Shown: piece after piece, positions 23,008 through 37,614 of the stretch
Numbering within the stretch: position 1 is the first letter of the stretch
Layout of the letters: each line of letters begins with the position of its first letter
Virus record (IMG/VR): IMGVR_UViG_3300045988_158900
From: a virus
Length of the DNA stretch: 37,614 bases
Direction: 5' to 3' (one strand)
Program-made: the position numbers and the translations under genes
The notes under the pieces: generated by a model
The model's input: only the letters and a program-made list of their open reading frames with translations
Database searches by the model: none
Told to the model about the DNA's origin: nothing

Positions 23008-23050
23008 TAATAAATGAGCCAAAATTTGGCTCATTTTTTTGTGCATTTTG

Positions 23051-23153: not shown

Positions 23154-23269
23154 ATTTTGTGTTCGGTATTTTCAACAATTTTTTATCCCGAAATTTGTGC
23201 AATTTGACGGTTGACAATGCTCAGTAGGTATGCTATACTTATACCATCAATTAAAGGAGGTCATTCACA

Positions 23270-23446: not shown

Positions 23447-23447
23447 T

Positions 23448-23771: not shown

Positions 23772-23842
23772 AAAATTGGGGCTTGACAAACAAGCCCCTA
23801 TCTGCTATAATAAATAATACCAAGAGAAAGGAGAATACCAAA

Positions 23843-24073
23843 ATGGAATTTATTGAACCCCCTATCTATGTCAAGTTGAGCGATGAAGAGCGCAATTCAC
23901 TCCATGAAGCCTATGTTATTCTAAATGACCTCGCGACTGCCGCCGAAGAAGATGACAGCGAATACATTGGCAACCCGCTAACTGGTGATGGCTATGGGCG
24001 GTTTGATGTGAGCCAAGCCGCTGAAATCTGCCGAGTGTTCGCGCCTGCTGAAAAACTGGAAATTAGTAATTGA
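23843..24073 (+). CDS. Small acidic protein family, copy 1 of 3 tandem paralogs (76 aa)
   Basis: RBS GAAAGGAGAAT. The segment EPPIYVKLSDEERNSLHEAYVILNDL aligns with copies 2 and 3. Confidence 0.6.
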   Translation: MEFIEPPIYVKLSDEERNSLHEAYVILNDLATAAEEDDSEYIGNPLTGDGYGRFDVSQAAEICRVFAPAEKLEISN

Positions 24074-24087
24074 GGGAGGAAAACAAA

Positions 24088-24315
24088 ATGGAAGTTATTA
24101 AACCCCCCATCTATGTCAAAATGACAGAGAAGGAGCGGAAAACCCTGCGCGATGCCTATGATATTCTGAATGAACTGTATGACGTCATCGCCGATAATGA
24201 CTGCGAGTATGTGAGCGATACTTGCGGGAATAACTATGACAGAGTGGACGTTGCGCTTACGGCTAATGTGCTTCAAATGCTTGCCCCCACTGAAAAAGTG
24301 GAAATCGGCAAATAA
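24088..24315 (+). CDS. Small acidic protein family, copy 2 of 3 (75 aa)
   Basis: RBS GAGGGAGG. The segment KPPIYVKMTEKERKTLRDAYDILNEL aligns with copy 1. Confidence 0.6.
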   Translation: MEVIKPPIYVKMTEKERKTLRDAYDILNELYDVIADNDCEYVSDTCGNNYDRVDVALTANVLQMLAPTEKVEIGK

Positions 24316-24330
24316 AAGGAGGTAAAACAA

Positions 24331-24561
24331 ATGAACATCATTACCTCAAACGTTCAGGTTCAACTCACCCAAGAGGAGAAGGACAAACTCCAAGACGCCC
24401 GCGAGGTTATTTCTCACCTGTTTGATTTGATGTATGACTACGAACAAGAATACGCTATTTCCAACATTGGCGAAAAGTATTCTATGGGCCAAGTCCGTGA
24501 TACCTCAAACCTGCTGGCCGCGCTTATCGGGTCTGATAAAATGCGGTTAGAAAATAAATAA
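24331..24561 (+). CDS. Small acidic protein family, copy 3 of 3 (76 aa)
   Basis: RBS AAAGGAGG. Same length and conserved ..LT.EE...L.DA..V...L..... pattern. Terminator at 24567-24591 is directly followed by the next -35 hexamer. Confidence 0.5.
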   Translation: MNIITSNVQVQLTQEEKDKLQDAREVISHLFDLMYDYEQEYAISNIGEKYSMGQVRDTSNLLAALIGSDKMRLENK

Positions 24562-24649
24562 AAAAAATGTGGGAGAAATCCCACATTTTTTATTGACAAC
24601 ACAACCAGTAGGTGTAGTATAATGTAGACAATGAAACAAGGAGGTAACA

Positions 24650-24856
24650 ATGACCACATTTCAAATTCGAGAGGAACTGGCGAACCGCTACAATTTAGAA
24701 ATCCGCAATGTCTGCTGTTATCACTGTGAATACTGGGGCTACAACCGCGGCAAGGTGCTGAATAGCGTGGGCGAGAGTAAATGTATGAAGCGCAAGAACG
24801 AGCGCACTTGGTGTCGTCAATTCTGCCGGGGTTTCGTTCCGAAATCAGGAAAATAA
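24650..24856 (+). CDS. Cys-rich zinc-binding small protein, 68 aa
   Basis: Track ORF with RBS AAGGAGG. Cysteine pattern CC-H-C ... C..C...C. Sequence MTTFQIREELANRYNLEIRNVCCYHCEYW... Confidence 0.55.
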   Translation: MTTFQIREELANRYNLEIRNVCCYHCEYWGYNRGKVLNSVGESKCMKRKNERTWCRQFCRGFVPKSGK

Positions 24857-24907
24857 ATCATTTGGGCTGGATAAACAAAAATCCAGCCCAATTTTTGTAT
24901 AATTTTC

Positions 24908-24966
24908 CACTTGACATTTTCGGCCGCGCGCTCACGAATGTGGCGCCCGGCATTTTTGTCAATAGG
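24908..24966. repeat. Palindromic promoter element copy 3 (truncated: arms plus hairpin, without -10 boxes)
   Basis: CCACTTGACA, hairpin, then ATTTTTGTCAATAGG. On plus the hairpin is followed by T5, so it is terminator-like. Confidence 0.5.
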
Positions 24967-25068
24967 TATACTTCACAAATTTTTCACCGCAATTTTGTGC
25001 ATTTTGACGATTGACTTCTATCCCGTAATACGGTATAATGGCTATACTGAAACAAGGAGGTAAGAACA

Positions 25069-25287
25069 ATGGAGTTGAAGAAAGCGTATCAGATGGTTTT
25101 CAGCGACCTGCATAATTGTCCTATGTTCCAAGGGCGGTATGACGCCATCAATGGCAATCCCTACTTTATGTTCGGCATTGAGACGGTTATGGAGGTAATC
25201 GCCAATCGCGCCTATGATGATGATTTTACCGAGAATTTCTCCAATGAATTTACTGACAATATGTTAAGGAGTAGAGAAAGTGTTTAA
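25069..25287 (+). CDS. Hypothetical protein, 72 aa
   Basis: Box plus promoter GATTGACT-N17-CGGTATAAT and RBS AAGGAGG. Track ORF. Confidence 0.55.
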   Translation: MELKKAYQMVFSDLHNCPMFQGRYDAINGNPYFMFGIETVMEVIANRAYDDDFTENFSNEFTDNMLRSRESV

Positions 25288-25465
25288 TATTGTATTGGCA
25301 CTAATCGTCGTAGGCGGGTGCGCGTGGGCGATTATCCACTTTATCCTCTGGCGAGACGAGAAATACTTATCCACCGAGGAGCAAATCCGCGAAATGATGG
25401 ACGAAACGTCCATTCCCACTGACACGCTGTGGAGTATGTATAACAAACTGACAGAGGGGCGTTAA
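25280..25465 (+). CDS. Small membrane protein, 61 aa (GTG start)
   Basis: RBS AGGAGTAGAGAAA-GTG. N-terminal TM helix MFNIVLALIVVGGCAWAIIHFILW. Confidence 0.45.
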   Translation: MFNIVLALIVVGGCAWAIIHFILWRDEKYLSTEEQIREMMDETSIPTDTLWSMYNKLTEGR

Positions 25466-25601
25466 TGCCCCTCTTGTTGGGTTTAGTCCTGGCTAACTAC
25501 ACGGAACAAAAAACTAATCCTGTGAGAATATAACTACAACAAAAATTTTTCTTGACATTTTCAAATAAATGTGGTAATATTATTATACTGAAAAAGGAGT
25601 G

Positions 25602-26078
25602 ATGACTGTGAACGCAATTATTCTATTCATTGTCTGTACCGCTATCAATGTGGTGCTGTCCACCATTAAGTCTATTTTGACTGTCAAAGGCAATAAGTGG
25701 ATTGCCGCCAGTATCAATGCGCTGACTTATGGCTTCTATTCCTATGTCATTATCCTGACCAACATTGACGGCGTTTCTACGTTGGCAAAAATGGGCATCA
25801 CCGCCGCCTGTAATTTCGTTGGTGTGCTGGCGGTCAAGTGGGTCGAGGAGCTGGCGCGCAAAGAAAAGTTGTGGAAAATCGAAATGACTGTTCCTACTAA
25901 GTATCGAGCCGCTGTGGATTTTGACCTGCGAGACATTCCCCACTCATACATTGAGATTAGCAACAAACATACACTATTCAATTTCTATTGTGCCACGCAA
26001 GCCGAGAGCAAAAAGGTCAAGGACATTGTAGCACAGTATGGCGCAAAATATTTCGTAGCAGAAAGCAAAAATTTGTAA
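25602..26078 (+). CDS. Membrane protein with three TM helices and a C-terminal soluble domain, about 158 aa. The start may instead be GTG at 25608.
   Basis: Promoter CTTGACA-N17-TGGTAATAT and RBS AAAAAGGAG. Hydrophobic N-terminal half. Function unknown (superinfection-exclusion-like topology). Confidence 0.5.
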   Translation: MTVNAIILFIVCTAINVVLSTIKSILTVKGNKWIAASINALTYGFYSYVIILTNIDGVSTLAKMGITAACNFVGVLAVKWVEELARKEKLWKIEMTVPTKYRAAVDFDLRDIPHSYIEISNKHTLFNFYCATQAESKKVKDIVAQYGAKYFVAESKNL

Positions 26079-26144
26079 AATAGGGGTTGACAAATCAGCC
26101 CCTATGTGTTAGAATGGTATCATCAAATAAGGGAGGATAACAAA

Positions 26145-26294
26145 ATGGAAATGATTAAAGTTTTCAATGACCACACTGGCGAAATCCTTGAAAAGACGTT
26201 CGTAGACCCCGCGGACGCGGACGACTTCGAGTTCATTCTCGACTTCCTTGAAACGAGATACGAACGCTACCACAACGGCGAACAAATCTACTAA
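26145..26294 (+). CDS. Small acidic protein, 49 aa
   Basis: Hairpin-embedded promoter ATAGGGGTTGACAAATCAGCCCCTAT..TGTTAGAAT and RBS AAGGGAGG before ATG at 26145. Confidence 0.5.
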   Translation: MEMIKVFNDHTGEILEKTFVDPADADDFEFILDFLETRYERYHNGEQIY

Positions 26295-26307
26295 GGAGGG
26301 CGCGACA

Positions 26308-26505
26308 ATGGAAATCAAAGATGTGTACTACAACGTTGAGTGGTGGGGCATAACCACTTGGGGCGAACGCTTCACTAATAGCGAATGGTTCAAGGATGAA
26401 AATGAAACTCTGTCGTTCATCGCGAATGACCTGGCGAATGACCCGCTTGTTCGCGGAGCGACCTTCACCACACACAAAACCATCGTATTTAAGAGAGGAG
26501 AATAA
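26308..26505 (+). CDS. Hypothetical Trp-rich protein, 65 aa
   Basis: RBS TAAGGAGGG before ATG at 26308. Sequence MEIKDVYYNVEWWGITTWGERF... Confidence 0.5.
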   Translation: MEIKDVYYNVEWWGITTWGERFTNSEWFKDENETLSFIANDLANDPLVRGATFTTHKTIVFKRGE

Positions 26506-26507
26506 AA

Positions 26508-26705
26508 ATGTTTACTGCTCTGTTTTTGGTACTGGTATGCCTTGGCATCGACTTCCTGTTCTCTGCTGGCTTCTCCCCGCCATTGGCATCGTGTCCATCG
26601 GCTCTTTCGTTATCGCGTTCTCGTGGAAACTGGTGCTGGTGTTTTGGCTCATTGTCGCAATCCTGCGTTCCATCTTCCGCGTCACTGTCAAGAGTTAATA
26701 AATGA
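26508..26705 (+). CDS. Small membrane protein with ambiguous frame. The ATG/RBS frame (26508..26705) and a -1 frame (26540..26698) both look coding.
   Basis: RBS AGAGAGGAG before ATG at 26508 gives a TM start MFTALFLVLVCLGIDFLF followed by a low-complexity tail. The -1 frame gives two clean TM helices (MPWHRLPVLCWLLPAIGIVSIGSFVIAFSWKLVLVFWLIVAIL). Possible frameshift or indel. Confidence 0.35.
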   Translation: MFTALFLVLVCLGIDFLFSAGFSPPLASCPSALSLSRSRGNWCWCFGSLSQSCVPSSASLSRVNK

Positions 26706-26745
26706 AAAATCTCCCAAATTTGGGAGATTTTTTTTGTTTATTTTG

Positions 26746-26848
26746 CCTATTGACAAAAACCCCTATTTGTGGTATACTCGGCCGAGCGCCCACGGCCCTG
26801 GCGCTCGAAATTTCCATTATACACCCTGCCAGCAATTTTGTCAATAGG
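26746..26848. repeat. Palindromic promoter element copy 4 (PE4)
   Basis: CCTATTGACA-N17-TGGTATACT, hairpin CGAGCGCC cacggccct GGCGCTCG, then reversed TATAAT..TTGTCAATAGG. Confidence 0.65.
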
Positions 26849-26985
26849 TAAATTGAACAAATTTACCCAAGCGCGCATCCCGAAAGTTTGTGCGAAATGA
26901 CCAAGAGCAGAATTGAAAAAAACTGTTGACAAATCGCGTTTTATCCTGTATAATAGCATTACAATCAAGAAAGGAAGTTGATACT

Positions 26986-27432
26986 ATGACTATCTATCTG
27001 GACATGGACGGGACTATCGCCGACCTGTATGGCGACCCTAACTGGCTGGCAAAGCTGGAAGCCGCGGACACGAGCGTATATGCGGACGCCCGCCCGCTTG
27101 TCCACTTCTCCACCCTCGCCCGCTATCTGAACCGCTTACAGGCGCGGGGCTACAATATCGGCATCATCAGCTGGCTGTCCAAGAGCGGAACGGATAAGTT
27201 CAATGCCGAAGTTGCCGAAGTCAAGCGCGACTGGCTGGCAAAGCATCTCCCCAGCGTGGAATGGGATGAAATTCATATTATCCCCTATGGCGTTCCTAAG
27301 TCCAACTGTGCGACCTGCCCCAACGCGATTTTGTTCGATGATGAACAGCGCAACCTCAACGAGTGGACGGCAAACACCCACAATATGGCATACAACGCCG
27401 ACCTTCTAATGGAAATTCTGCGCAACCTGTAA
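26986..27432 (+). CDS. 5-prime(3-prime)-deoxyribonucleotidase, HAD superfamily (NT5C-like), 148 aa
   Basis: N-terminal HAD motif I IYLDMDGTIADLYG and later ILFDDE. Box plus promoter TGTTGACA-N17-TGTATAAT. RBS GAAAGGAAGTTGATACT-ATG is shared with the two cassette A genes. Confidence 0.65.
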   Translation: MTIYLDMDGTIADLYGDPNWLAKLEAADTSVYADARPLVHFSTLARYLNRLQARGYNIGIISWLSKSGTDKFNAEVAEVKRDWLAKHLPSVEWDEIHIIPYGVPKSNCATCPNAILFDDEQRNLNEWTANTHNMAYNADLLMEILRNL

Positions 27433-27544
27433 AAAAAATAGCAAATAGGGGTTGACAATCTCACTCCTATTTGCTATAATATGTAATGTAATTAAGGTAT
27501 GGGACACGATGGTAAGCCCAACCAAGAGAAAAGGAGAATGAACA

Positions 27545-28201
27545 ATGAAAAATATCTACTGCACGCTGGATACTGAAACGGTAGGCGGCGCGGCTCGCCC
27601 CACGGGAATGTATAATGTGGGCGCGATTATCCACGACCGCAAGGGCGAAATTCTCGCCACCACTTCCCTGCTGGTGATGGAGCATTATGACGAAATCGCC
27701 CTTGATGGCTACGCCAAGAAGAATTTTCCGGTGTATGCCGAACGGCTCAAAACTGGCGAAATCTCCGCTATCGCCACGGAGCGCGAAGCCTATGAGGTAG
27801 TCAAAAACCTGTGCGACCATTACGGCGTTCGCTATGTGATGGCATACAATTCCGGTTTTGACTTCTGCAAGACCTGTTTCCGCGACCTGCTGGATAATTT
27901 CGAGTTCATCGACTTGTATCTTATGGCACTGGAAACTATCACCCACAAAAAGTCCTATGCGGAATATTGTCGAGAACACGGCAAGCGTTCCAAGAATGGC
28001 AAGACCTGTGCAACCTCTGTCGAAGCGGTGTATGGTTATCTCCACGATAATCCTGACTTTTCCGAAGAACACACCGCCCTGTCTGACGCTATGCAGGAAA
28101 TGGAAATTTTCCTCGCCTGTCAGAAGATGCACAAGCGATACACCAAGAACGTCCACGCATGGGACGCACCTTTTGAGGTAAAATGTTTTCCCAAGTTTTG
28201 A
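27545..28201 (+). CDS. DEDDh-family 3-prime-5-prime exonuclease (DnaQ/RNase T-like), 218 aa
   Basis: Exo I CTLDTETVG, Exo II YVMAYNSGFDFCK, Exo III HTALSDAMQEMEI (H-x4-D). Preceded by a 10-codon uORF MVSPTKRKGE (27508-27540) inside a conserved leader. Confidence 0.7.
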   Translation: MKNIYCTLDTETVGGAARPTGMYNVGAIIHDRKGEILATTSLLVMEHYDEIALDGYAKKNFPVYAERLKTGEISAIATEREAYEVVKNLCDHYGVRYVMAYNSGFDFCKTCFRDLLDNFEFIDLYLMALETITHKKSYAEYCREHGKRSKNGKTCATSVEAVYGYLHDNPDFSEEHTALSDAMQEMEIFLACQKMHKRYTKNVHAWDAPFEVKCFPKF

Positions 28202-28268
28202 GATTGGGGCTTGACAGCCCCTTTCTCATGTGGTATAATGACTATACTAAGACAAGGAGGTAAGCGAA

Positions 28269-28484
28269 ATGCCTATTAAGCAAGTGCTTTTTAAGGGCGA
28301 CCATTCTGATGGTGTTCAGGCTGGCATTCAGCTTGAAAATGGTTTCGTAATCTGTGCCTGTTGCGGCGGAGTATTTGAGCCTGATGAAATCGAAATTCTC
28401 CACGTGTTCGATTATTGGGTTGACTTCTCCGAATGGATTGGCGACCCTGACCTGACTGAATACCGTAAGCACGACACCCCGTAA
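28269..28484 (+). CDS. Hypothetical small protein, 71 aa (4 Cys)
   Basis: Hairpin-embedded promoter GGGGCTTGACAGCCCC..TGGTATAAT and RBS CAAGGAGG. Track ORF. Confidence 0.55.
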   Translation: MPIKQVLFKGDHSDGVQAGIQLENGFVICACCGGVFEPDEIEILHVFDYWVDFSEWIGDPDLTEYRKHDTP

Positions 28485-28558
28485 AAAAAGTTTGGAATGG
28501 GGGTTGACAACGCCCCCATTCCATGCTATAATAACATTACAAATTCAAGGTAGGGGAA

Positions 28559-29089
28559 ATGATGGTAAGCCCCACCAACAGAAAAGGAGAAAAAACTATA
28601 AAAGCTCGCTATGCTAACCTGACTAACTTCAATCGCGTGGTCAATACCTACAAATGGATGGTTTCCAAGTTCGGAAGTAAGGAGTTCTCCTCTGAGGACT
28701 TTAAACAGGCAAAGCGCAAGTATCGGCGATACACCTACAATTCCCTTGCGTTTCTGCGGGACGAGGGTATCATCAAGGTAGTCCGCACCGAACAGACCAC
28801 CAAGGAAATTAACCTGTCTCCGTGGGAAGCGGACATTTGGATGATTGACAAGGATGGCAGCGCCCTGATGACCGAGTATGACTGGGTACGTTTGCCGGAC
28901 GTGGCGCAGAACGCTCTGCGTGCTCTGAATGGACAGAATTTCCGCACGGAGCGCAAGGACACCAAGACTGTGGAAGTGGAAAAGTCCATTTACACGGTCA
29001 ATCCTGATGGTATGCTGGCATGCGCAAGAGGTATGGGCGTCTGTTGGCTGAAAGGGCTGACGCGCTGGCGGGCGAAATCGCAAACCTGA
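28559..29089 (+). CDS. Hypothetical protein, 176 aa. Its N-terminus MMVSPTNRKGE is homologous to the uORF of the exonuclease leader.
   Basis: Promoter GGAATGGGGGTTGACAACGCCCCCATTCC..TGCTATAAT. The leader is about 85% identical to the 27480-27545 leader, but here it is fused in-frame to the ORF. Confidence 0.5.
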   Translation: MMVSPTNRKGEKTIKARYANLTNFNRVVNTYKWMVSKFGSKEFSSEDFKQAKRKYRRYTYNSLAFLRDEGIIKVVRTEQTTKEINLSPWEADIWMIDKDGSALMTEYDWVRLPDVAQNALRALNGQNFRTERKDTKTVEVEKSIYTVNPDGMLACARGMGVCWLKGLTRWRAKSQT

Positions 29090-29172
29090 ACGAAAAGCGG
29101 GACGCATTTCTCGCTTGTCAGTTCTAACAAAAATGAGGGGAGTTTTCCCCTCATTTTTTTTGTATAATTTTC

Positions 29173-29274
29173 CCTATTGACAAATGCGCCTGGACATGGT
29201 ATAATGGCCGGCCGATTTCGCGCGTCTCGGCCGGAATTCACCATTATACACCCCGCCAGCAATTTTGTCAATAG
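29173..29274. repeat. Palindromic promoter element copy 5 (PE5)
   Basis: CCTATTGACA-N17-TGGTATAAT, hairpin CCGGCCGA tttcgcgcgtc TCGGCCGG, reversed promoter ending TTGTCAATAG. Confidence 0.65.
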
Positions 29275-29365
29275 TTTTTTTACACAAATTTTTTTATTTA
29301 TTTTTCCCAAAACTTGTATAGTTTGCCTGTTGTAATCCATGCCCACCTGTGCTATACTACATAAT

Positions 29366-29925
29366 GTCAAGAGGGAGTGAGACCCCGTGGGCTGGGCTAA
29401 TGGTATGTAATGTCCCAAGTGTAAGTGAGAGCGCGCCGTACTGAAAAAAAAGACCAAAATTCCCTCTTGACAAACTCCATCAAAGGTGCTATAATGGGTA
29501 GTGTCAAGAGGGGAACGGCACGGCAGATGCGTCTAATGTGTCGCCTGTGTAGACAGGTTTCAGAAATTTGGAAAAATTTCAAAAAACCTCTTGACAAACC
29601 CCAACACCTGTGTTATAATTGATAATGTCAAGAGGGGAACAGCCCCACCCAAGAAATCCGCGGGTCGCGAACCGTGAGAGAGTAAAGGAAGTAAGCCCTA
29701 TACCAGCGCAGTAATCCCAAACGATGAACGAAAAGTGAGTGGATTGGTCAGTTCGTCCATGCGCATGGAAACGTTGAACCAACAAGCAACACCTTATTCG
29801 TCAGGCGAGGTTGTAAGTCGTTGTGAATACTTGTGGGACGTTCCCCTGTTGGCACTATTAAAAAAAATCAAGAATTTTGAAAAAAAGTCTTGACAATCCC
29901 AGCGTAAGCTGTTATAATAGATAAT
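29366..29925 (+). ncRNA. Tandem array of three promoter-driven small structured RNAs (about 105, 85 and 265 nt) with a conserved 5-prime AAUGUCAAGAGGG(G)AAC leader
   Basis: Promoters at 29318-29359, 29467-29495 and 29591-29619, each TTGACA-N17-TATAAT. Each transcript 5-prime GUCAAGAGGG can pair with the CCCUCUUGAC that forms the next -35 region. No ORF longer than 10 codons. Tiny GTG-started ORF (M)GWANGM at 29387-29410. Confidence 0.5.
29890..29918 (+). promoter_or_regulatory. Consensus promoter of cassette 1 (TTGACA-N17-TATAAT)
   Basis: Exact hexamers. The transcript begins AAUGUCAGGAGGGCAAAGCCCUC (5-prime hairpin) before the RBS. Confidence 0.6.
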
Positions 29926-29974
29926 GTCAGGAGGGCAAAGCCCTCAAAACCAAATGGAGAAAGGAATTGATACT

Positions 29975-30355
29975 ATGGCTAACACTAACACCACCACCCG
30001 CAAGCCCACCAAACGCGACAATTTCACCGCCCTGCTCAAGCTGTCCGAGGTCAAGGCTGACCCCAAGCTGGTGGAGTTCATCACCCACGAAATCGACCTG
30101 CTCGACCGCAAGAACACCGTGGACAAGAAGCCCACCAAGACCCAGCAGGAGAATGAGGCCATCAAGACCACTGTCCTGTCCGCTATGGAGAGCAACCGGC
30201 TGTATTCCATCAGCGAGATGCTCAAAGAGTTCCCCGTCTGCAAGGACATGAGCAATCAGAAGCTGTCCTCTCTGGTGCGGCAGATGGTGCTGGATAAGCA
30301 GGTGGAGCGCGTGGAGGACAAGCGCAAGGCGTTCTTCCGCAAGGTGAGCGCGTAA
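29975..30355 (+). CDS. Cassette protein A1, 126 aa (paralog of A2)
   Basis: RBS GAAAGGAATTGATACT-ATG. Conserved with A2: TKRD.FTALLK, ELLDRKNTVDKKPT.TQ, SNQK.SSLVRQMVLD.Q..R.EDKRKA.F. Confidence 0.6.
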   Translation: MANTNTTTRKPTKRDNFTALLKLSEVKADPKLVEFITHEIDLLDRKNTVDKKPTKTQQENEAIKTTVLSAMESNRLYSISEMLKEFPVCKDMSNQKLSSLVRQMVLDKQVERVEDKRKAFFRKVSA

Positions 30356-30406
30356 ACCTCAAAGGGTGGGGAGCAATCCCCACCCTAACCCTGAAAGGAG
30401 TACCGC

Positions 30407-30763
30407 ATGACTGACCGAGTTGCCGACCTCATGCGAAAGCTGGATTGTACCGAAGCCGAAGCCAAGGACATTATTGTTCAAGATGCTATCATCGACAAGG
30501 GCGGCAATCCATTTCCGCTGACCGAGGAACAGGAAAAGGCAAGCAAGAAAGCGCGGGGAGTAGGACGCCAGCCGACCGCATACAAGTTCGCGCCAAAAGA
30601 AAGAAAGGCTAATCTCACAAAGCAGGGCATTATCACCCTACTGACCGAGACACTGACCACATACGGCGCGACTGACCTGAACGTGAGCAACGTGGAGCGC
30701 GAATTTTTATTCACGCTTGATGGAACAAAATACAAGGTTGTGCTGTCGTGTCCGCGCAAGTGA
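30407..30763 (+). CDS. Cassette protein B1, 118 aa (paralog of B2)
   Basis: RBS GAAAGGAG. Conserved with B2: PTAYKF..(K/R)ERKAN.TK..II..L. Terminators flank the gene. Confidence 0.6.
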   Translation: MTDRVADLMRKLDCTEAEAKDIIVQDAIIDKGGNPFPLTEEQEKASKKARGVGRQPTAYKFAPKERKANLTKQGIITLLTETLTTYGATDLNVSNVEREFLFTLDGTKYKVVLSCPRK

Positions 30764-30801
30764 GGGAGAGAAATTCTCCCTCATTTTTTTTGTGTATTTT
30801 G

Positions 30802-30903
30802 ACTATTGACAAATTTGGGCGCGTGTGGTATAATTCGGTCGCGCGTCCACGTATGTGGCGCTCGAAATTTCTATTATACACCCCATTGGCAATTTTGTCA
30901 AGC
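30802..30903. repeat. Palindromic promoter element copy 6 (PE6)
   Basis: GACTATTGACA-N17-TGGTATAAT, GC hairpin with loop CCACGTATGTG, reversed promoter ending TTGTCAAGCG. Confidence 0.6.
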
Positions 30904-31013
30904 GTTTTTTTACACAAATTTCAAAGATTGAAAATCCCGTTTTTTGTAGGTATTGCCTATTGTAATTCTCCTGTAATGTGCTATAATGATGATACTGAAA
31001 GGAGCGATGAACG

Positions 31014-31697
31014 ATGGAGTTTCCGAGAGTTCAGGATTTTATCCTGACCATTCAGCAGGCGGTGTCTAAAAAACCGCGTTTGGTCAACCGCGCTGATGAC
31101 CTGTGCCGAGTTATCCACAACACATACCCTGATGTCAAGATAATCACCAGCAACGGCGCAAGCAAGGAATGTCTGGTGTTCCCTGAGTTGGGCTATGTCC
31201 TCAAATGGTCTATGGAGACGCGGGACGCAGAGCGCGAAGTGGCTGTGTATCAGAAAGCCGTAGACGCAAACCTCGCTGATTTTTTCCCCGCCACTATGCT
31301 GGCTGGCTACATTGTTCCCCCGCGCAAGTGTGATAATCCTGTTGCATTTACCGCACAACAGATTATTAACACCAGTGCCCATAAAATCCATTGGAGTAAG
31401 GGCGGGTTGAAAACTCGTCTTTCGCGTATCGCACAGACTGTCCCCGATTGTCGTATTTCTCAGATTGAACGGCAGTTCCGCAAAGCTGATGTTAATGGCT
31501 ATGGGCGCGACCTCGATGGGCTATGGGCGAAAGTTGCCGTTTCTATCTACGGTAAGCGCAAGGTTATCGCCCTCTGTGAGTTCGTTAAAAAGTATCACAT
31601 CAATGACCTCCACGGCTCAAATATCGGCTACATTGGCATCTTTCCTGTTATCCTCGATTTCTCCGGCTATGGCGTCTGTGATGGTTTAGAGTTTTGA
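31014..31697 (+). CDS. Hypothetical protein, 227 aa
   Basis: Box plus promoter TATTGTAA-N17-TGCTATAAT and RBS GAAAGGAG. Track ORF. ATG at 31005 in another frame gives only 20 aa. Confidence 0.55.
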   Translation: MEFPRVQDFILTIQQAVSKKPRLVNRADDLCRVIHNTYPDVKIITSNGASKECLVFPELGYVLKWSMETRDAEREVAVYQKAVDANLADFFPATMLAGYIVPPRKCDNPVAFTAQQIINTSAHKIHWSKGGLKTRLSRIAQTVPDCRISQIERQFRKADVNGYGRDLDGLWAKVAVSIYGKRKVIALCEFVKKYHINDLHGSNIGYIGIFPVILDFSGYGVCDGLEF

Positions 31698-31741
31698 AAA
31701 AAACTCTTGACAAACAGCCCCGCCTGTGCTATACTAACATC

Positions 31742-32095
31742 GTGAGGTGAGAAAAATGAAATGGCGATTGTATCGTCCCCCTTAGTAATCAATCTATGAT
31801 TATTGATTAGATATATTTATAGATTGATTAAGACCCCAGCCAAGATGGAGTTTAATAGAGTGTTTGTCCCACTCAATAATTTCTTCTCAACCGCCATCTT
31901 GAACCCCTCGTTAGAAATTGGGACTGGGTACGAAGTTCTAACCACATTCACCGTGTGCCGAGAAAGACCCTCCATAGTGGGCTTTGCGCCCCGGTTTTGG
32001 GTCTACTGTGTAGAAGTGGGCTGGCTGTCCGGACGGCTGGCGAACATCAACAGGGGAACCAGCGTAGTAGCCAACTACGCTGGTTTATTTTTGTT
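31742..32095 (+). ncRNA. About 350-nt promoter-to-terminator non-coding transcript with a 9-codon leader ORF MKWRLYRPP (31756-31785, TAG stop)
   Basis: Promoter TTGACA(31707)-N17-TGCTATACT(31730). Terminator CAGCGTAGTAGCCAACTACGCTGG followed by a T-run at 32060-32100. Only a 9-codon ORF has an RBS (GAGGTGAGAAAA-ATG). The track ORF 31803..32132 lacks an RBS and reads through the terminator. Confidence 0.45.
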
Positions 32096-32102
32096 TATTT
32101 TG

Positions 32103-32203
32103 CCTATTGACAAATGCGCTCGAATGTGTTAAAATGGGTCGGGCGCTCACGGCTGTGGCGCCCGAAATTTCCATTATACCACGTGGCACAAATTTTGTCA
32201 AGT
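32103..32203. repeat. Palindromic promoter element copy 7 (PE7)
   Basis: CCTATTGACA-N17-TGTTAAAAT, hairpin TCGGGCGC tcacggctgtg GCGCCCGA, reversed TATAAT..TTGTCAAGTG. Confidence 0.65.
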
Positions 32204-32294
32204 GTTTTTTTGCACAAATTTTGAATGTTGAAAATCCCATTTTTTGTGAGTATTGACTATTGTAATTTGCCCAAGGGTGTGGTAATATATAATT

Positions 32295-32440
32295 GTTCCA
32301 AGGGAGAGGGTAAGACCTCCGGCGGGGCGTGTACCTTAAAAAAAAATTCCACAAATCCGAAAAAAAGTCTTGACAAGGCTTCGGATATGTGTTAGAATAT
32401 AGATGTTCCAAGAGGGAAACAACAATATGGTGGGCGACAC
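32295..32440 (+). ncRNA. Two tandem small RNAs with an UUGUUCCAAG(G)GAG leader variant and a 5-codon uORF MVGDT preceding cassette 2
   Basis: Promoters at about 32253-32289 and 32370-32398 (TTGACA-N17-TAGAAT). Same organisation as 29366-29925. Confidence 0.4.
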
Positions 32441-32466
32441 CTAAAAACGCAGAAAGGGTTGATACT

Positions 32467-32919
32467 ATGACTGCTATCACTTCCACCGCTAACCGCCGTA
32501 TGACCAAGCGGGACTACTTCACCGCCCTCAAAACCTTTGCCGAGGTGGGCGAGTTCAAGTTCCCCATTTCCCAGCGTATCGGCACTTCCGAGGACTTCGA
32601 GACTGTCTATGTGGACATTTCTCCCGCAGAGATAGCGGAGTTCGCCAAGCATGAGCTGGAACTGCTCGACCGCAAGAACACCGTGGACAAGAAGCCGACC
32701 GCCACGCAGGTGGCAAACGAGGGTATCAAGGCTGACATCAAAGCGTTTCTGGACGCCCACAAGGGCGAGAAGTACACCGTGTCTGCTCTGATGAAGTCTG
32801 TTCCCACTATCGCCGATGCGTCCAATCAGAAGGTTTCTTCTCTGGTGCGTCAGATGGTGCTGGACGGTCAGGCAGACCGTATCGAGGATAAGCGCAAGGC
32901 GTATTTCACCGCCAAGTAA
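32467..32919 (+). CDS. Cassette protein A2, 150 aa (paralog of A1)
   Basis: RBS AAAGGGTTGATACT-ATG, identical spacing to A1 and the NT5C gene. Terminator GGGGGGGAGATATTCTCCCCCC follows. Confidence 0.6.
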   Translation: MTAITSTANRRMTKRDYFTALKTFAEVGEFKFPISQRIGTSEDFETVYVDISPAEIAEFAKHELELLDRKNTVDKKPTATQVANEGIKADIKAFLDAHKGEKYTVSALMKSVPTIADASNQKVSSLVRQMVLDGQADRIEDKRKAYFTAK

Positions 32920-32977
32920 GGTATGGGGGGGAGATATTCTCCCCCCTATCCCCTAAAATCTGAAAAGGCGGTGTTTT

Positions 32978-33376
32978 ATGGCTGAAATCTCCAAAACCGA
33001 ATGGCTGAAAAACGCTATGGCGAAAATGGGCTGGACTGCCGATGAAGCGGAAGCCGTGTGGAACTCTGACCGAGAAATCGACAAGGGCAAGGCACAGGAT
33101 TTTGACCTGTCGAAAGAACAGCTCAAAATTGCCCAAAAATTCGCCAAGACTGGCACTCGCAAGACCCCCACCGCATACAAATTCACTACGAGGGAACGCA
33201 AGGCAAATCCCACGAAAGCGTCCATTATCGCTGAACTCGCAACATTTTTGACCGAAAACAGCGAAAATGCCTGCGAAAATGTGGAAATTACCAACAAAGA
33301 GCGTCAAATTGCGTTCAAAATCGGTGAAAATTCCTATGAACTGACTCTTGTGCAGAAGCGCAAGCCGAAAAGTTGA
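32978..33376 (+). CDS. Cassette protein B2, 132 aa (paralog of B1)
   Basis: Track ORF. Conserved PTAYKFTTRERKANPTKASIIAEL with B1. Confidence 0.55.
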   Translation: MAEISKTEWLKNAMAKMGWTADEAEAVWNSDREIDKGKAQDFDLSKEQLKIAQKFAKTGTRKTPTAYKFTTRERKANPTKASIIAELATFLTENSENACENVEITNKERQIAFKIGENSYELTLVQKRKPKS

Positions 33377-33426
33377 GAAAATGGGGGAGAAATCCCCCAT
33401 TTTCCCCAGAAAACGAGGAAAAAAGT

Positions 33427-33771
33427 GTGAAAAACAAGGAATTTTTGTATGTAGGGCACTATTATGATGAAAATGGCGTATACATTCTGAAAATAGGCAC
33501 TACTAATGACTTAAAGCGCAGACAGCAGGAACACACGAGAAACTACCGCAAGACCGCCGTTCACCGTTTACCGCACAATTCTGAATTTATTTACGATTTT
33601 TCGCTACCGCTTTCCAAGTATAATACTTTGCGATACGAGGACAAAAACCGTGAGAAATGGCAGAAAATGGGATACGGTGTGTTTGTGAGAAATGACAGAT
33701 TTGCATGTCCTGTGAAGCCAAAATCTGTTGAAATTACCATTCGTCGAACTTACCAAATCGCTCTCGATTGA
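33427..33771 (+). CDS. GIY-YIG domain protein (T5orf172-like), 114 aa, GTG start
   Basis: RBS GAGGAA 6 nt before GTG. Motif LYVGHYYDENGVYILKIGTTNDLKRRQQEH matches GIY..(10)..YIG.T.NL.RR..EH. Confidence 0.55.
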   Translation: MKNKEFLYVGHYYDENGVYILKIGTTNDLKRRQQEHTRNYRKTAVHRLPHNSEFIYDFSLPLSKYNTLRYEDKNREKWQKMGYGVFVRNDRFACPVKPKSVEITIRRTYQIALD

Positions 33772-33794
33772 GGGCGATTTTTTTATTCAATTTG

Positions 33795-33870
33795 ACTATT
33801 GACAACGCCCTCTGACTGTGGTATAATGGGTCGGGCGCTCACGGATGTGGCGCCCGGCATTTTTGTCAAG
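33795..33870. repeat. Palindromic promoter element copy 8 (right arm truncated)
   Basis: GACTATTGACA-N17-TGGTATAAT, hairpin CGGGCGC tcacggatgtg GCGCCCG, then CATTTTTGTCAAG. Confidence 0.55.
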
Positions 33871-33994
33871 ATACATTTTCAACAATTTTTCCGGCGAAAA
33901 TTTGTATAAATTGACTATTGCATTTTGTCCCGAAATGCGCTATACTATAAACAATCTGAGGGAGCTGGAACCCACCAACAGCACGGAGGCATTT

Positions 33995-34606
33995 ATGAAT
34001 AAGAGCCAGTTTTTTGACCACGAAATCGAGTTCATTCAGTCCGAGGATTTGCGCTCATTCGTGCGCTACTACTTCGACTGTATCGTTCCCGACTATTTCT
34101 GGACTATCGGCGCAAGTTCTTCCGGCAAGTTCCATCCGGCTATGAGCCAAGGCGAGGGCGGTTTGGTGCGCCACACTAAGGCGGTCGCGTGGTTTTGCGA
34201 GGAATTGCTCCGCATGAGCCAGTGGGCGTATCTCACTGACGAGCGCAAGGACTACGCAAGAGTTGCCTGTCTGCTCCACGATACCGCCAAGTATGGCTTA
34301 CACGAGTTCGACAAGGAGTTGTACCCCAAGCACGGGGCTATGGCGGCTGACCAAGTTCGCCGTTCGTGGCTGGTATTTTTCGAGAATGACTGCCCCTATG
34401 AGTTGACGCAAGCCATCAAGTCCCACATGGGTCAGTGGACTACCGACAAGGCGGACAGACCTTTCACTCCTATCGACAGACTGGTACACATGGCTGACTA
34501 TGTGGCAAGCCGTTCGTTCATCGACATTCCGGCAATTAACGCTGACTATAACGACAAGGCGGAACTGGACGAAATTTCGCCTGAACTGCCGTGGGAGGAG
34601 GAATAA
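33995..34606 (+). CDS. HD-domain metal-dependent phosphohydrolase, 203 aa
   Basis: H..(about 35)..HD motif (FHPAMSQGEGGLVRHTKAV ... CLLHDTAKY). Box plus promoter ATTGCAT-N17-CGCTATACT. The leader contains CCCACCAACAGCACGGAGG, related to the exonuclease leader. Confidence 0.65.
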   Translation: MNKSQFFDHEIEFIQSEDLRSFVRYYFDCIVPDYFWTIGASSSGKFHPAMSQGEGGLVRHTKAVAWFCEELLRMSQWAYLTDERKDYARVACLLHDTAKYGLHEFDKELYPKHGAMAADQVRRSWLVFFENDCPYELTQAIKSHMGQWTTDKADRPFTPIDRLVHMADYVASRSFIDIPAINADYNDKAELDEISPELPWEEE

Positions 34607-34608
34607 TC

Positions 34609-34743
34609 GTGACCCCTAAATTTTACTTCAACGCTGACGAGAATGTATGCGCGAGTGAGCACTGGGTCATCCAGTATCTCCACATACAAAATCCCGACAT
34701 AGACGAGGATGAAATCGAGGGCGAACTCCACTCCCGCCGGTAA
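34609..34743 (+). CDS. Small acidic protein, 44 aa, GTG start overlapping the HD gene stop
   Basis: RBS GGGAGGAGGAATAATC-GTG. Sequence MTPKFYFNADENVCASEHWVIQYLHIQNPDIDEDEIEGELHSRR. Below the track cutoff. Confidence 0.4.
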   Translation: MTPKFYFNADENVCASEHWVIQYLHIQNPDIDEDEIEGELHSRR

Positions 34744-34837
34744 TATTTCGGTTGGTATGAGTGTCAAATGTCCGATGACATTTTCAACAACTTTTGTTAA
34801 AGGTGGAGAAATCCACCTTTAATTTTTGTTCATTTTG

Positions 34838-34950
34838 CCTATTGACAACGCGAGCCCAGTGTGGTATAATAAAAGGGGAGGTGCAACGGGCCGAGCGCGG
34901 GCGCTGCGGTCCGAATTTCCATTCTCCCACCCCATATGGAAAATTTTCCG
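34838..34950. repeat. Palindromic promoter element copy 9 (degenerate right arm). Followed by three CATATG-containing palindromes at 34933-35010.
   Basis: CCTATTGACA-N17-TGGTATAAT, GC hairpin GGCCGAGCGCGGGCGCTGCGGTCC, then GAATTTCCATTCTCCCACC. Confidence 0.45.
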
Positions 34951-35144
34951 TGATTCTAGCGGCCTTCATATGCGCCCATATTTTCCCGAAAATCCGAGCC
35001 CCGCTCGGTACTCATATGCCGCCCGGTTTGACATAAAAAAAAATTTATGTTATAATGATAAAAAAAACCATTTTTTTTCTCACTTGACTTTTAAAAAAAT
35101 TTTTTGTATAATATATGTATACAAAATGAAAAGAGGTTATTTAT

Positions 35145-35519
35145 ATGAATAAGAACGATATTCTGACGCGCTTAATGAATGGCGAGAGCGCTGAGGATAT
35201 TGCTAAGGAAATGACTGCGATGCTGAATGACGCCACTAAGGCATATGCTGACCAGAAGAAGGACAAGGAAAAGATGGCCCGAGCGGAAGCGGTTGCCGAT
35301 ACTATCAACGACTATGCGGCCTACGTCGGCTATAAGGGCGCAGAGTTGAAGGGTGAGGACGTCATTAAGGTTATGGACAGTTTCCTTAAATTCTACAAGG
35401 ACCCAGGTAATTTCAAAATTGAACTCCCCGGTTTCCGTTTTGAAACAAACTCTAAGGGTGCGATTAAGAAGGGCAAAACCGTTGATGAAATCATCAACGA
35501 CTGGATTTCTCGCATTTAA
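35145..35519 (+). CDS. Hypothetical protein, 124 aa (last island gene, with an AT-rich promoter)
   Basis: Track ORF. Promoter CTTGACT-N17-TGTATAAT and RBS AAAGAGG. Strong terminator at 35533-35595. Confidence 0.55.
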   Translation: MNKNDILTRLMNGESAEDIAKEMTAMLNDATKAYADQKKDKEKMARAEAVADTINDYAAYVGYKGAELKGEDVIKVMDSFLKFYKDPGNFKIELPGFRFETNSKGAIKKGKTVDEIINDWISRI

Positions 35520-35532
35520 TTTCGAATAACGT

Positions 35533-35595
35533 GTCGGCCCAGGTATTTTTCATTTGGGAAATTGGCAATTAGAATACCTGGGCTCGACGTTTTTT
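35533..35595 (+). terminator. Strong intrinsic terminator
   Basis: Long hairpin GTCGGCCCAGGTAT...ATACCTGGGCTCGAC followed by TTTTTT. Confidence 0.7.
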
Positions 35596-35677
35596 GGAAA
35601 GGGTGTCTCGAAAAATTCAGAAGATGACGATAACGATAAAATTGAGTGATAAATTGATACCGAGCGGGGGGCACCAA

Positions 35678-35791
35678 ACTCCCATCATTTTCTTTCACTC
35701 CCATCATTTTCTTTCACTCCCATCATTTTCTTTCACTCCCATCATTTTCTTTCACTCCCATCATTTTCTTTCACTCCCATCATTTTCTTTC
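35678..35791. repeat. Perfect tandem repeat, 19 bp x 6 (ACTCCCATCATTTTCTTTC), at the island right boundary
   Basis: Six identical head-to-tail units with no spacers. Confidence 0.85.
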
Positions 35792-36019
35792 AAAGTTATT
35801 ATCATTATCAATTTCTAACATTTTGTTATTAAGAGGAAACATTATAAGGTTCCATTATTCGTTGTTTACAATTATATTCATCAAACCCCGCTAATAGGTT
35901 TATTTAATTATGATTTAGTTTTTGTAAAGGTAAAACAATAATCAAACCTCAGATTCAAAAAAACGTTATAAGTCAAAATGCATTAAAAAAATGGAGTGGT
36001 TTATCGCCACTCCATTTTT

Positions 36020-36385
36020 TTATTCCTTATACATTAAATCACTTAAAATATCATTATACGCTGATTCCAGGAGAGAATCAACCAGAGTTGAATCAACCTT
36101 CACTTCACTCTCCACTTTCACTCCAACAGGCGGAGCATAATACTCCTCATCACGAGTAAGTTTAACCCAAGGCGTTGCCTTTCTATGACTCAGACTACCA
36201 TCTTCATAAATAGTCGCAATCCAATAGCCATCAACAATAAGGGCGTTGTTATAATCATATAGAATATATACATTATCACCCAGGTCATCATACTTAGAGC
36301 GCACAATCACATCTCTACCTTTATAATTTCCAACTCTTTTACTATATTTATTTTTCAGTTCATCATAAGTAAATTCATTTTTCAT
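36020..36385 (-). CDS. Hypothetical protein, 121 aa
   Basis: Track ORF with TAA stop. A bidirectional terminator GGAGTGGTTTATCGCCACTCC flanked by A- and T-runs lies at 35985-36025. Confidence 0.5.
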   Translation of the reverse strand: MKNEFTYDELKNKYSKRVGNYKGRDVIVRSKYDDLGDNVYILYDYNNALIVDGYWIATIYEDGSLSHRKATPWVKLTRDEEYYAPPVGVKVESEVKVDSTLVDSLLESAYNDILSDLMYKE

Positions 36386-36448
36386 TTTTTCATTTCACTT
36401 TCTAAAACGTTCCTTAATGTTTTGAGATAGTGCCCCAATTTTTAGATG

Positions 36449-36630
36449 AATATCCGGTCTCAAGCGCCGACGGGCTTAGGGAGGTTTTTGTGGCATAATT
36501 AATAGAATTACTAATATTTACACTATTATCATTCTAATAATATCCGGTCTCAAGCGCCGACGGGCTTAGGGAGGTTTTTGTGGCATAATTAATAGAATTA
36601 CTAATATTTACATAATTATCATTCTAATAA
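36449..36630. repeat. Tandem duplication, about 90 bp x 2 (2 mismatches), covering the 3-prime end of the adjacent gene
   Basis: TATCCGGTCTCAAGCGCCGACGGGCTTAGGGAGGTTTTTGTGGCATAATTAATAGAATTACTAATATTTACA(C/T)(T/A)ATTATCATTCTAATAA occurs twice head-to-tail. Confidence 0.8.
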
Positions 36631-36932
36631 TACCCAGAAGAATAAGGGTCTAATGAACGAAAATTTACATTTAACTTTTGATTGTCCTTTCCGCCATAAA
36701 TAACACCCTCGGGAGGTGCAGAGGGGCGGAGCTCCTCTGCGAAACAAATCTTTACAGGCTTATAGTTGCTAGGTAATACAAAATAGATTGTATCATCTTT
36801 TAAATATGTTTCTACTTTAATTGCCTTTTCAGGCACTTCTTCTTTACAGCATCTTTTAAAATGCGCTACATTCTTATTATTTACTTCCACAGGAATATTA
36901 TATTCCCCATTTAATCCACTATGATAACCCAT
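36567..36932 (-). CDS. Hypothetical protein, 121 aa, with 1 in-frame TAG (at 36624)
   Basis: Track ORF 36624..36932 continues 19 codons through a TAG to TAA at 36567. The extension lies inside the tandem duplication. Confidence 0.4.
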
Positions 36933-37289
36933 TTTTTATTTCTCCTTTTACCTATTTATAATTTTTCTAATTAAATTCAAATAAAAAGTAAGTATGCGCT
37001 TATTTCTTATTTTTATATATTAAACCCATATATTTCATTTATATTATCATTTAAAAATGGATTCTCTACGTCCTTATTTACCCTTCCTGCTTCCTCAATA
37101 CAAAAATATAAATCATTATTATTAGTTAAATATATATTATCTATTTTCTAAAAATTTAATGCTTTACTTACTAAATTCTCATAAGAACCTTTATAAAATT
37201 TTATCATACCCATATACATCCTTTTTATATATTATATTTATACATTAATAGGAACTTTTTATTCCAAATTTTCCATTACTGCCACTTTT

Positions 37290-37614
37290 CAAGTGCCACA
37301 ACGTGCGGTTGTATTTATACAACCACACCATTATTTATATTTATATTTATATTTATATTTATATTGCGGTTGTAATGGTTGTAATGGTTGTATTTAAATG
37401 TTTTTGGTTGTAAATTTTAATTCAAAATGGTTGTAATGGTTGTATTTGGATAAAAATGGTTGTTAAGTTGGTTGTAAAAATCATAGATTTTTATTTAGTT
37501 TTAACAACCATTTTACAACCATTTTACAACCATTTTACAACCAAATTGTGTGAAACAACCATTTTTGGTTGTAAAACAACCATTTTAGTTGTATTTATAT
37601 AATTTTGGTTGTAT
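37290..37614. repeat. Iteron field: at least 12 direct and 7 inverted copies of heptamer GGTTGTA (TACAACC), with a palindrome GGTTGTATTTATACAACC and (ATTTAT)x5 at 37332-37365. Extends to the window end.
   Basis: Visible repeats GGTTGTAATGGTTGTAATGGTTGTATT..., then TTACAACCATTTTACAACCATTTTACAACCATTTTACAACC (11-bp unit x4) and AACAACCATTTTTGGTTGTAAAACAACCATTTTAGTTGTA. Confidence 0.75.

Follow-up and report, generated by a model that had tools for sequence, protein, structure and literature searches.

Selected early messenger RNAs of a gut phage begin with a conserved structured RNA, a short hairpin that we describe here from a 37,614-nucleotide (nt) stretch of viral DNA, the IMG/VR record IMGVR_UViG_3300045988_158900, the whole of which is called the window below. 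The original prediction for this DNA had proposed a set of four nucleotide-targeting enzymes (an NT5C-like nucleotidase, a DEDDh exonuclease, an HD phosphohydrolase and a GIY-YIG protein) with a shared, partly translated leader. A common cis-element is indeed present in the leaders of the exonuclease gene and of the adjacent gene, orf176, and, in degenerate form, in that of the HD gene, before which relatives of the phage carry the full element. Its stem is free to vary, its apical part is conserved in sequence and its spacing to the ribosome-binding site (RBS) is fixed, and because of this combination we read the hairpin as a putative post-transcriptional operator recognized by a trans-acting factor, an interpretation that we prefer to the others but consider about evenly poised between right and wrong.

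Two early leaders in the window share a hairpin

A core of 30 nt, GATGGTAAGCCC(A/C)ACCAA(G/C)AGAAAAGGAGA, is common to the leaders of the exonuclease gene and of orf176, at positions 27508-27537 and 28561-28590. Exactly these two copies occur in the window against none expected, and the shared core that had been predicted was thus located in both leaders. The resemblance extends over about 50 nt (27495-27545 and 28548-28598, about 84% identical); the predicted likeness of about 85% stands, but both coordinate ranges given for it were about 8 nt out of register. The block that can be aligned starts at an upstream terminator-like hairpin, takes in the promoter and stops at the start codon; the coding regions of the two genes beyond it are unrelated, a finding that rejects a segmental duplication including the coding regions, which the original prediction had raised as an objection.

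In its minimum-free-energy structure, copy 1 of the hairpin (27496-27523, plus strand), in the exonuclease leader, has a lower stem GGU(A)UGGG / CCCAACC, an internal loop AC / AAG, the apical pairs A27506-U27513 and C27507-G27512, and a GAUG tetraloop at 27508-27511. Copy 2 (28549-28576, plus strand), in the orf176 leader, folds in its minimum-free-energy structure with a stem GGU(A)GGGG / CCCCACC and a GAUG tetraloop at 28561-28564; here a strain-specific C-to-U change creates a second in-frame AUG at 28559, where relatives read ACGAUGG. A covariance model of the element, R1, matches the two copies at 27492-27528 (55.3 bits) and 28545-28581 (52.1 bits). The HD leader carries a related segment, as had been claimed: ACCCACCAACAG, at 33970-33981, is one mismatch away from the shared 12-mer (the window holds four such matches, with 0.16 expected). 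It forms part of a degenerate hairpin relic at 33960-33981 (plus strand), which reads GGG-AGCUGGAA-CCC followed by ACCAACAG, contains no AUG and has its apical part deleted. The relic goes undetected by R1 and by a second model, R2; the HD leader of L009, one of the related loci (given L numbers here), is similar to it, and an intact hairpin precedes the HD gene in other relatives.

Compensatory changes maintain the structure

Loci were collected by protein anchoring and with the covariance model, an approach that replaced an exact-loop scan of IMG/VR (ACACGATGGTAAG...AAGGAG), in which nine stretches were found, three of them family members and the others chance matches within coding sequence. 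R1 was seeded with nine hand-collected copies and run on 59 sources comprising 1.16 Mb. Weak R2 matches that lay inside coding sequence and lacked the loop (at about 11430 in L070-type loci, at 202-238 on the minus strand of L053 and at 13865 in L074) were discarded.

The element consists of a stem of 7-9 base pairs (bp) of free sequence, a conserved purine-rich internal loop (AA / AAG, 2x3), a helix of 2 bp and a tetraloop that reads GAUG or, rarely, GAAG. Among close relatives the bases that flank GGG on its 5' side and CCC on its 3' side vary in concert (U-A for the exonuclease gene, G-C for orf176, C-G in L007), and more distant phages bear the same apical sequence on other stems (GGUUGAG/CUCAAUC in L008, UGGUUCAAG/CUUGAAUCA in L009 and AAGGG/CCCUU in L015). 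Pairing reaches 93.9% of cells in the nine hand-collected copies, among which a single position takes the forms GC, UA, CG and AU. The 21 distinct copies collected by the model are 93.2% paired, with two-sided changes at six of seven pairs and none of 500 shuffles as good; seven G-U pairs among them fit the sense-strand RNA only. Because a model-fitted alignment leans towards the structure, the pairing test was repeated on 18 copies with a structure-blind MAFFT alignment and RNAalifold. Here 94.4% of cells pair and five of six pairs show two-sided changes, with slid controls far lower. This procedure recovers the upper stem and, within the nominal "13-nt loop", the 2-bp helix that closes the GAUG tetraloop; the apical helix is 100% paired in the 18 copies, as AU/CG, GC/CG or AU/UA.

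Such covariation bears on the proposal that the leader simply marks the recent duplication or recombination of a promoter-leader cassette and has no function of its own. The promoter, a hairpin holding the -35 hexamer in its loop, and the leader do recur as a similar block of about 110 nt before two unrelated genes, the higher-GC island of the window in which they lie is full of repeated regulatory cassettes, and the arrangement recalls the promoter early stem-loop (PeSL) cassettes of T4-type phages, in which a promoter and a stem-loop are repeated before unrelated small early genes in a plastic region. Unlike PeSL, the window hairpin is located downstream of the promoter in the transcript, displays RNA-type covariation with G-U pairs and accompanies particular gene families only. 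Compensatory changes that keep the pairing largely refute a functionless cassette, and the element is retained at about 30% exonuclease identity, where the flanking leader is unalignable; we find this explanation barely credible.

No Rfam 15 family matched the window at the gathering threshold, and at E <= 5 nothing was found on the sense strand over either hairpin, matches elsewhere being terminator-like and due to chance. A human long non-coding RNA model that overlaps a hairpin on the minus strand (E = 2.8) was taken as a chance match. The hairpin is an RNA motif new to Rfam, previously uncatalogued and of modest but genuine interest. Antisense partners of the loop, CTTACCATCGT with up to two mismatches, number 14 in the window against 8 expected, two of them being the hairpins themselves, and there is no evidence within the window for a small RNA that base-pairs with the loop.

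The element is placed at a fixed distance from the start codons of three gene families

All copies beyond the seed are on the gene strand. They follow the -10 box by 4-13 nt, except in L051 (28 nt), and are separated from the start codon by 14-21 nt, a range into which L051 also falls (17 nt). The 3' end of the element is about 10 nt upstream of the Shine-Dalgarno sequence (SD). Since it is the start codon, and not the promoter, to which the spacing is constant, the RBS is suggested as the target.

Non-seed hairpins precede the exonuclease gene in L055, L050, L052, L053, L105, L093 and L094; the exonucleases of the last three are only about 30% identical, yet the hairpin is present in their leaders. 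Orf176 homologues are preceded by non-seed hairpins in L051 and L066, HD genes by full hairpins in L072, L074, L056 and (found with R2) L052, and one unrelated open reading frame (ORF) of 130 residues by a hairpin in L053. The idea that orf176 always has the hairpin was rejected, since an iterative hidden Markov model search found members with plain leaders in L086, L085 and L052. In L052 the exonuclease leader copy (9941-9977) and the HD leader copy (14814-14850) both have the tetraloop GAAG, not GAUG. A joint change of this kind is what an altered specificity of a trans-acting factor would predict, in what is a single case.

The placement of the hairpin could also reflect a passive stabilizer at the 5' terminus of the mRNA, which would counter decay by RNase J and RNase Y in a Firmicute host with no trans-acting factor involved. 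Stem-loops at the 5' end and SD-like stabilizers are established for B. subtilis and for the early RNA of phage SP82, and the element resembles the Firmicute stabilizers (the SP82 polypurine sequence, aprE and ermC) in combining a 5'-proximal structure or SD-like sequence with a strongly promoted gene. At its usual distance from the -10 box it falls within a few nt of the predicted 5' end, and any stem sequence is tolerated if pairing is kept. Firmicute stabilizers, however, need no conserved loop, whereas the internal loop and tetraloop of the element are nearly invariant across phages with exonucleases that are about 30% identical; moreover, the 14-21 nt to the start codon are fixed, and three gene families only, among dozens of early genes, carry the hairpin. 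We regard a purely passive stabilizer as decidedly unlikely.

A site of the nut/boxB type, where a factor that binds the hairpin as it is transcribed would alter RNA polymerase so that it passes downstream terminators, draws on other aspects of the same placement. The hairpin is proximal to the promoter and has a sequence-specific apical loop, features shared with the lambda nut/boxB sites of early phage transcripts, and the island is dense in terminator-like hairpins. Unlike the lambda sites, the element has no conserved boxA-like partner, and its distance is constant to the start codon and not to the promoter, as L051 illustrates; an antitermination site is in our estimation highly improbable.

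The AUG in the tetraloop and the fate of orf176

Positions 2-4 of the tetraloop form an AUG, in which the original prediction saw the start of an upstream ORF (uORF) and a partly translated leader with translational coupling. In the exonuclease leader this AUG opens a ten-codon mini-ORF, MVSPTKRKGE* (27509-27541, plus strand), whose TGA stop at 27539-27541 lies 3 nt before the exonuclease ATG. Translation of such a mini-ORF might act through re-initiation at the adjacent main start or by way of a regulatory leader peptide, and several features are in keeping with this: besides the close stop in the exonuclease leader, in the orf176 leaders of L043 and L044 the uORF stop and the main ATG overlap in AUGA, the loop AUG has an SD-like AAGG or GGGA ahead of it, and the loss of the orf176 ATG in this strain coincides with the second in-frame loop AUG. 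Among the 25 instances compared, however, the frames opened by the loop AUG extend for 4-23 codons and end from 22 nt before to 35 nt after the main start, in all three frame relations including in-frame fusions, with no conserved peptide or coupling geometry. Near-identical phages differ in the run of 5-8 A that separates the SD from the orf176 start, so that the frame relation changes, and both L052 copies have AAG in place of the AUG. Furthermore, conservation of the peptide does not go beyond that of the loop nucleotides, and the AUG is contained in a tetraloop closed by a covarying helix. With length, frame, peptide and stop-start geometry all unconserved and the AUG missing from L052, the coupling that had been proposed is not supported, and we consider a functional mini-ORF quite improbable.

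The same segment had been described as a uORF in one gene and the in-frame N-terminus of the product in the other. Both can be read from the DNA, but the N-terminus is not genuine coding sequence. The orf176-family gene (28598-29127, plus strand) is disrupted: its start codon has changed from ATG to ATA (28598-28600), and one G is missing after 29022, shifting the last 40 or so codons with respect to the ancestral TAA stop at 29125-29127. In relatives an ATG 7-9 nt downstream of the SD gives a product that begins MKARYANL and finishes in ...AFLACQF; the family is characterized by a winged-helix domain and a long C-terminal helix. The same lesions are present in two independent ENA assemblies of the same strain (L018 and L019). 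Judged from these lesions, the orf176 copy in the window is a pseudogene, and it is because the start codon has been lost and the gene frameshifted that the 176-residue ORF runs into the leader as far as the loop AUG. Translation in this strain may be rescued from the leader AUGs, but the frameshift argues for decay. Database entries of relatives, of 188-189 residues, begin MVSPTNRKGEKTM and are over-extended to the loop AUG. The tetraloop therefore carries a warning for annotation, in that its AUG misleads gene callers into N-terminal extensions and hides a pseudogene.

A putative operator and a candidate regulator

As an operator, the hairpin would be the site of a sequence-specific trans-acting factor, of phage or host origin and either protein or RNA, that would read the internal loop and the tetraloop and would co-ordinately set the translation and/or stability of a small regulon comprising the exonuclease, orf176 and HD genes. 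The tetraloop AUG would then be part of the recognition sequence and not a functional start for a leader peptide. Phage translational operators such as those of T4 gene 43, the RegA targets and the MS2 and PP7 coat proteins are likewise short hairpins just 5' of the RBS, with their identity in loop or bulge nucleotides and with a free stem. The MS2 operator hairpin also holds an AUG, although that of the window hairpin is not the start codon of the regulated gene, and the enzyme under the control of the T4 gene 43 operator, the DNA polymerase, likewise has 3'-5' exonuclease activity. Unlike these operators, to which it has no sequence relationship, the element combines a 2x3 purine internal loop, 2 bp and GAUG, and is a single element before three unrelated gene families.

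A number of observations weigh against an operator. No trans-acting factor was found in this analysis, and conservation of the loop could in part reflect a good initiation context for a translated mini-ORF. Transcription start sites were inferred from promoter consensus alone. The sequences in the covariation alignments are phylogenetically related, and the model-fitted ones are biased towards the structure; the folding energies of the two window hairpins are unremarkable (z = -0.3 and -0.4). Finally, many relatives have plain leaders before the exonuclease, orf176 or HD gene, and the HD copy in the window is degenerate, so that the element is dispensable.

A more specific form of the operator interpretation, which we hold tentatively and consider somewhat unlikely, is that the hairpin serves a previously unknown RNA-binding regulator and defines a post-transcriptional nuclease/phosphohydrolase regulon in large TAG-recoded gut phages. 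The candidate for such a regulator is the winged-helix orf176 protein, whose own mRNA often bears the hairpin and whose gene adjoins that of the exonuclease. Winged-helix domains read RNA hairpins in SelB and Roquin. If orf176 does encode the regulator, its loss in this strain would amount to a natural regulator knock-out. It is less likely that the hairpin is a miniature ligand-sensing RNA tied to nucleotide metabolism.

Because the full element precedes the HD gene in related phages, shared control of the exonuclease, orf176 and HD genes is a reasonable inference from these comparisons. The larger proposal, of four enzymes forming one module under one control, fails: the NT5C and T5orf172-like genes are without the element, and the latter is largely missing in L032.

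The enzymes encoded in the early region

Separate early genes, each with its own promoter, encode the nucleotidase, the DEDDh exonuclease and the HD hydrolase; they do not form an operon. The first of these, at 26986-27432 (plus strand), specifies a 148-residue NT5C-like 5'(3')-deoxyribonucleotidase of the HAD superfamily. It narrowly passes PF06941 (NT5C; 27.3 bits, cut-off 24.8), matches PHROG 2643, "5'-3' deoxyribonucleotidase" (E = 8.9e-12), and contains the HAD motifs DMDGT (motif I, with the DxDxT nucleophile, residues 6-10) and FDDE (acidic motif IV, 117-120), in agreement with the class originally claimed. A PDB sequence search with this protein gave nothing useful. Its promoter (26926-26954, plus strand) is a perfect TTGACA-17-TATAAT, with 12 of 12 consensus positions, and its leader is plain, with no match to R1 or R2.

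The 218-residue product of the second gene (27545-28201, plus strand) is a DnaQ-like DEDDh 3'-5' exonuclease. The requested profile for this class, PF00929 (RNase_T), gave no match, nor did any other Pfam family at E <= 0.1, and no PDB sequence was matched even with a family profile; the class itself stands on the catalytic residues and the predicted fold. D9, E11, D106, H176 and D181 (Exo I D-x-E, Exo II D and Exo III H-x4-D) are invariant in 26 homologues. The AlphaFold model has a predicted local distance difference test score (pLDDT) of 92, and its top Foldseek matches are TREX1, ERI3 and the exonuclease domain of Pol-alpha (E about 1e-5, template modelling (TM) score about 0.55, probability 1.00). 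Because of the invariant D-E-D-H-D residues and this match in fold, the protein is, on sequence and model, a DEDDh exonuclease with the RNase-H-like DnaQ fold, similar in fold and catalytic residues to the TREX1, ERI and DnaQ-epsilon enzymes but too divergent for PF00929. It matches PHROG 20187 (E = 1e-29) and, weakly, PHROG 192 (E = 0.0038), and belongs to a family of about 600 members, some homologues having been named "DNA polymerase III epsilon subunit-like" by the Joint Genome Institute (JGI). A second, divergent copy of a DEDDh exonuclease (23-29% identical) is found in the same early region of L010 (11605-12267), L013 (3204-3848) and L014 (9557-10174).

The HD-domain protein (203 residues; 33995-34606, plus strand) is a metal-dependent phosphohydrolase, as predicted: it scores 39.9 bits against PF01966 (cut-off 22), and its metal ligands H60, H95-D96, H144 and D168 are invariant in nine homologues. 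It falls in PHROG 5889 (E = 1.7e-43), an uncharacterized phage family, and a PDB sequence search with it gave nothing useful. In fold and/or catalytic residues, the nucleotidase and the HD protein match known NT5C/HAD deoxyribonucleotidases and HD phosphohydrolases.

The fourth member of the proposed set, a small T5orf172-like ORF of the GIY-YIG superfamily (33373-33771, plus strand), is a marginal case. It reaches 21.5 bits against PF10544 (cut-off 20) over model positions 2-34 of 101 only, one third of the model, and against PF01541 (GIY-YIG) it remains at 13.6 bits, below the cut-off of 22.6; there was no match in PHROG or NCBIfam. The GIY-YIG assignment is thus borne out marginally by the one profile and not by the other. 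Its real start is probably the GTG at 33427, after GAGGA. The ORF is variably present in relatives, matches in the close relative L032 over its first 27 residues only, and has no hairpin leader.

It has been suggested that the nucleotidase, exonuclease and HD protein act jointly, either degrading host DNA, deoxynucleoside monophosphates (dNMPs) and deoxynucleoside triphosphates (dNTPs) in the manner of T5 pre-early functions or destroying cyclic-nucleotide immune signals. By domain class all three act on nucleotides or nucleic-acid ends, their genes keep their synteny in the early region throughout the phage family, and the exonuclease and HD genes share the hairpin in different relatives. Phage T5 uses a pre-early 5'-deoxyribonucleotidase after host DNA breakdown. 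Joint action is less easily reconciled with the separate promoters and with the lack of a hairpin before the NT5C gene, and a stand-alone exonuclease of the epsilon-like kind might just as well act as a proofreading subunit, as the weak PHROG 192 match and the epsilon-like JGI names would allow; we think joint action in either form unlikely.

In the Pfam, PHROG and Foldseek scans the four proteins matched only HAD/NT5C, DnaQ-like, HD and T5orf172 families, and, compared by fold class, they are not members of the Acb1, Apyc1, Tad1/Tad2 or Acb2 families. To our knowledge, characterized anti-signalling proteins use other folds (2H phosphoesterase or metallo-beta-lactamase) or act as sponges. Considered by domain class, host-DNA/dNMP salvage, nucleotide-pool editing, a proofreading subunit and counter-defence would all be compatible with this enzyme set, and the sole argument for the predicted activity against the cyclic-oligonucleotide-based anti-phage signalling system (CBASS), Pycsar or Thoeris is that the enzymes act on nucleotides. 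The enzymes are ordinary, routine phage nucleotide-metabolism genes.

Genome context and organization of the early region

The window is phage DNA, and its source is a gut phage of roughly 195 kb: gut-metagenome contigs of 166-198 kb in IMG/VR and ENA carry exact and near-exact copies of the exonuclease gene. The GC content is sharply split, at about 30% in 1-19000 and again from about 35000 to 37614, and 43-51% in 19000-35000, the island in which the genes above are located. If TAG is taken as a sense codon, stop-free coding length in the low-GC part rises by a factor of more than two (2152 to 5270 codons, the longest frames then being 583, 557 and 530 codons), whereas the genes of the island are intact under the standard code, suggesting that an early region in standard code adjoins a TAG-recoded late region of low GC content. 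In the phage database the window matched only phAss-1, a TAG-recoded gut phage with a predicted host among the Clostridia (PMC10607447). The phage described here probably infects Clostridia.

The higher-GC, standard-code region is a typical early region. It contains short plus-strand genes, nearly each of which has its own near-perfect TTGACA-17-TATAAT promoter (the sigma-70-type consensus) and a strong SD, and the nucleotidase, exonuclease and HD genes, together with two paralogous small-gene pairs, are syntenic in early regions across the whole phage family. The paralogous pairs are arranged in tandem, at 29975-30763 (126 and 118 residues) and 32467-33376 (150 and 132 residues); one to three copies occur in every related early region, with no domain match above threshold.

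Several early promoters (27441-27474, 28494-28522, 28206-28221, 26078-26105 and 23775-23800) have the -35 TTGACA in the loop of a GC-rich hairpin of 6-11 bp; these hairpins are preceded by an A-run, so that they read as terminators on the minus strand, and their stems covary among relatives (for example, GCAAATAGGGG/CCCCTATTTGC against GCAGACAGGGG/CCCCTGTCTGC). In the exonuclease promoter (27441-27480, plus strand; TTGACA at 27452 and TATAAT ending at 27480) the hairpin has 9 bp, GCAAATAGG/CCTATTTGC, which covaries to GCAGACAGGGG/CCCCTGTCTGC in L001; in the orf176 promoter (28504-28532, plus strand) the -35 hexamer lies in the loop of GGAATGGGGG/CCCCCATTCC.

Eight copies of an intergenic cassette of about 200 nt each are present at about 21975, 23010, 26700, 29125, 30760, 32060, 33760 and 34795. 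Each comprises a terminator hairpin with a T-run, a plus-strand promoter ATTTTGCCTATTGACA-17-TATAAT and a GC-rich hairpin with compensatory changes, followed in most copies by a reverse-oriented promoter (for example 26844-26816, 12 of 12 consensus positions) and then by a third promoter on the plus strand, so that two promoters about 65 bp apart face each other with a hairpin between them. A second type of shared leader, AAUGUCAAGAGGGGAAC, which is an inverted repeat of CCTCTTGACA around the -35, comes after four to six consensus promoters at 29330-29930 and 32290-32420, with about 500 nt lacking a convincing ORF; these units are candidates for small RNAs or for another leader class. The left edge of the island (19468-20122) holds six copies of a palindrome of about 25 nt, AAGATTGTTAAAAATTTAACAATGT, an arrangement reminiscent of an array of operators bound by a dimeric DNA-binding protein. 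Just past the right edge are a 19-nt tandem repeat, ACTCCCATCATTTTCTTTC, in about seven copies, and a 90-nt tandem duplication (98% identical), at 35659-35829 and 36449-36628.

Implications

Regulation in uncultured, stop-codon-recoded gut phages is essentially unknown, and the hairpin offers a concrete, clonable handle on post-transcriptional control in these viruses. It marks a specific subset of early genes, those for a DEDDh exonuclease, an HD hydrolase and a winged-helix protein, and in doing so hints that their products act jointly.

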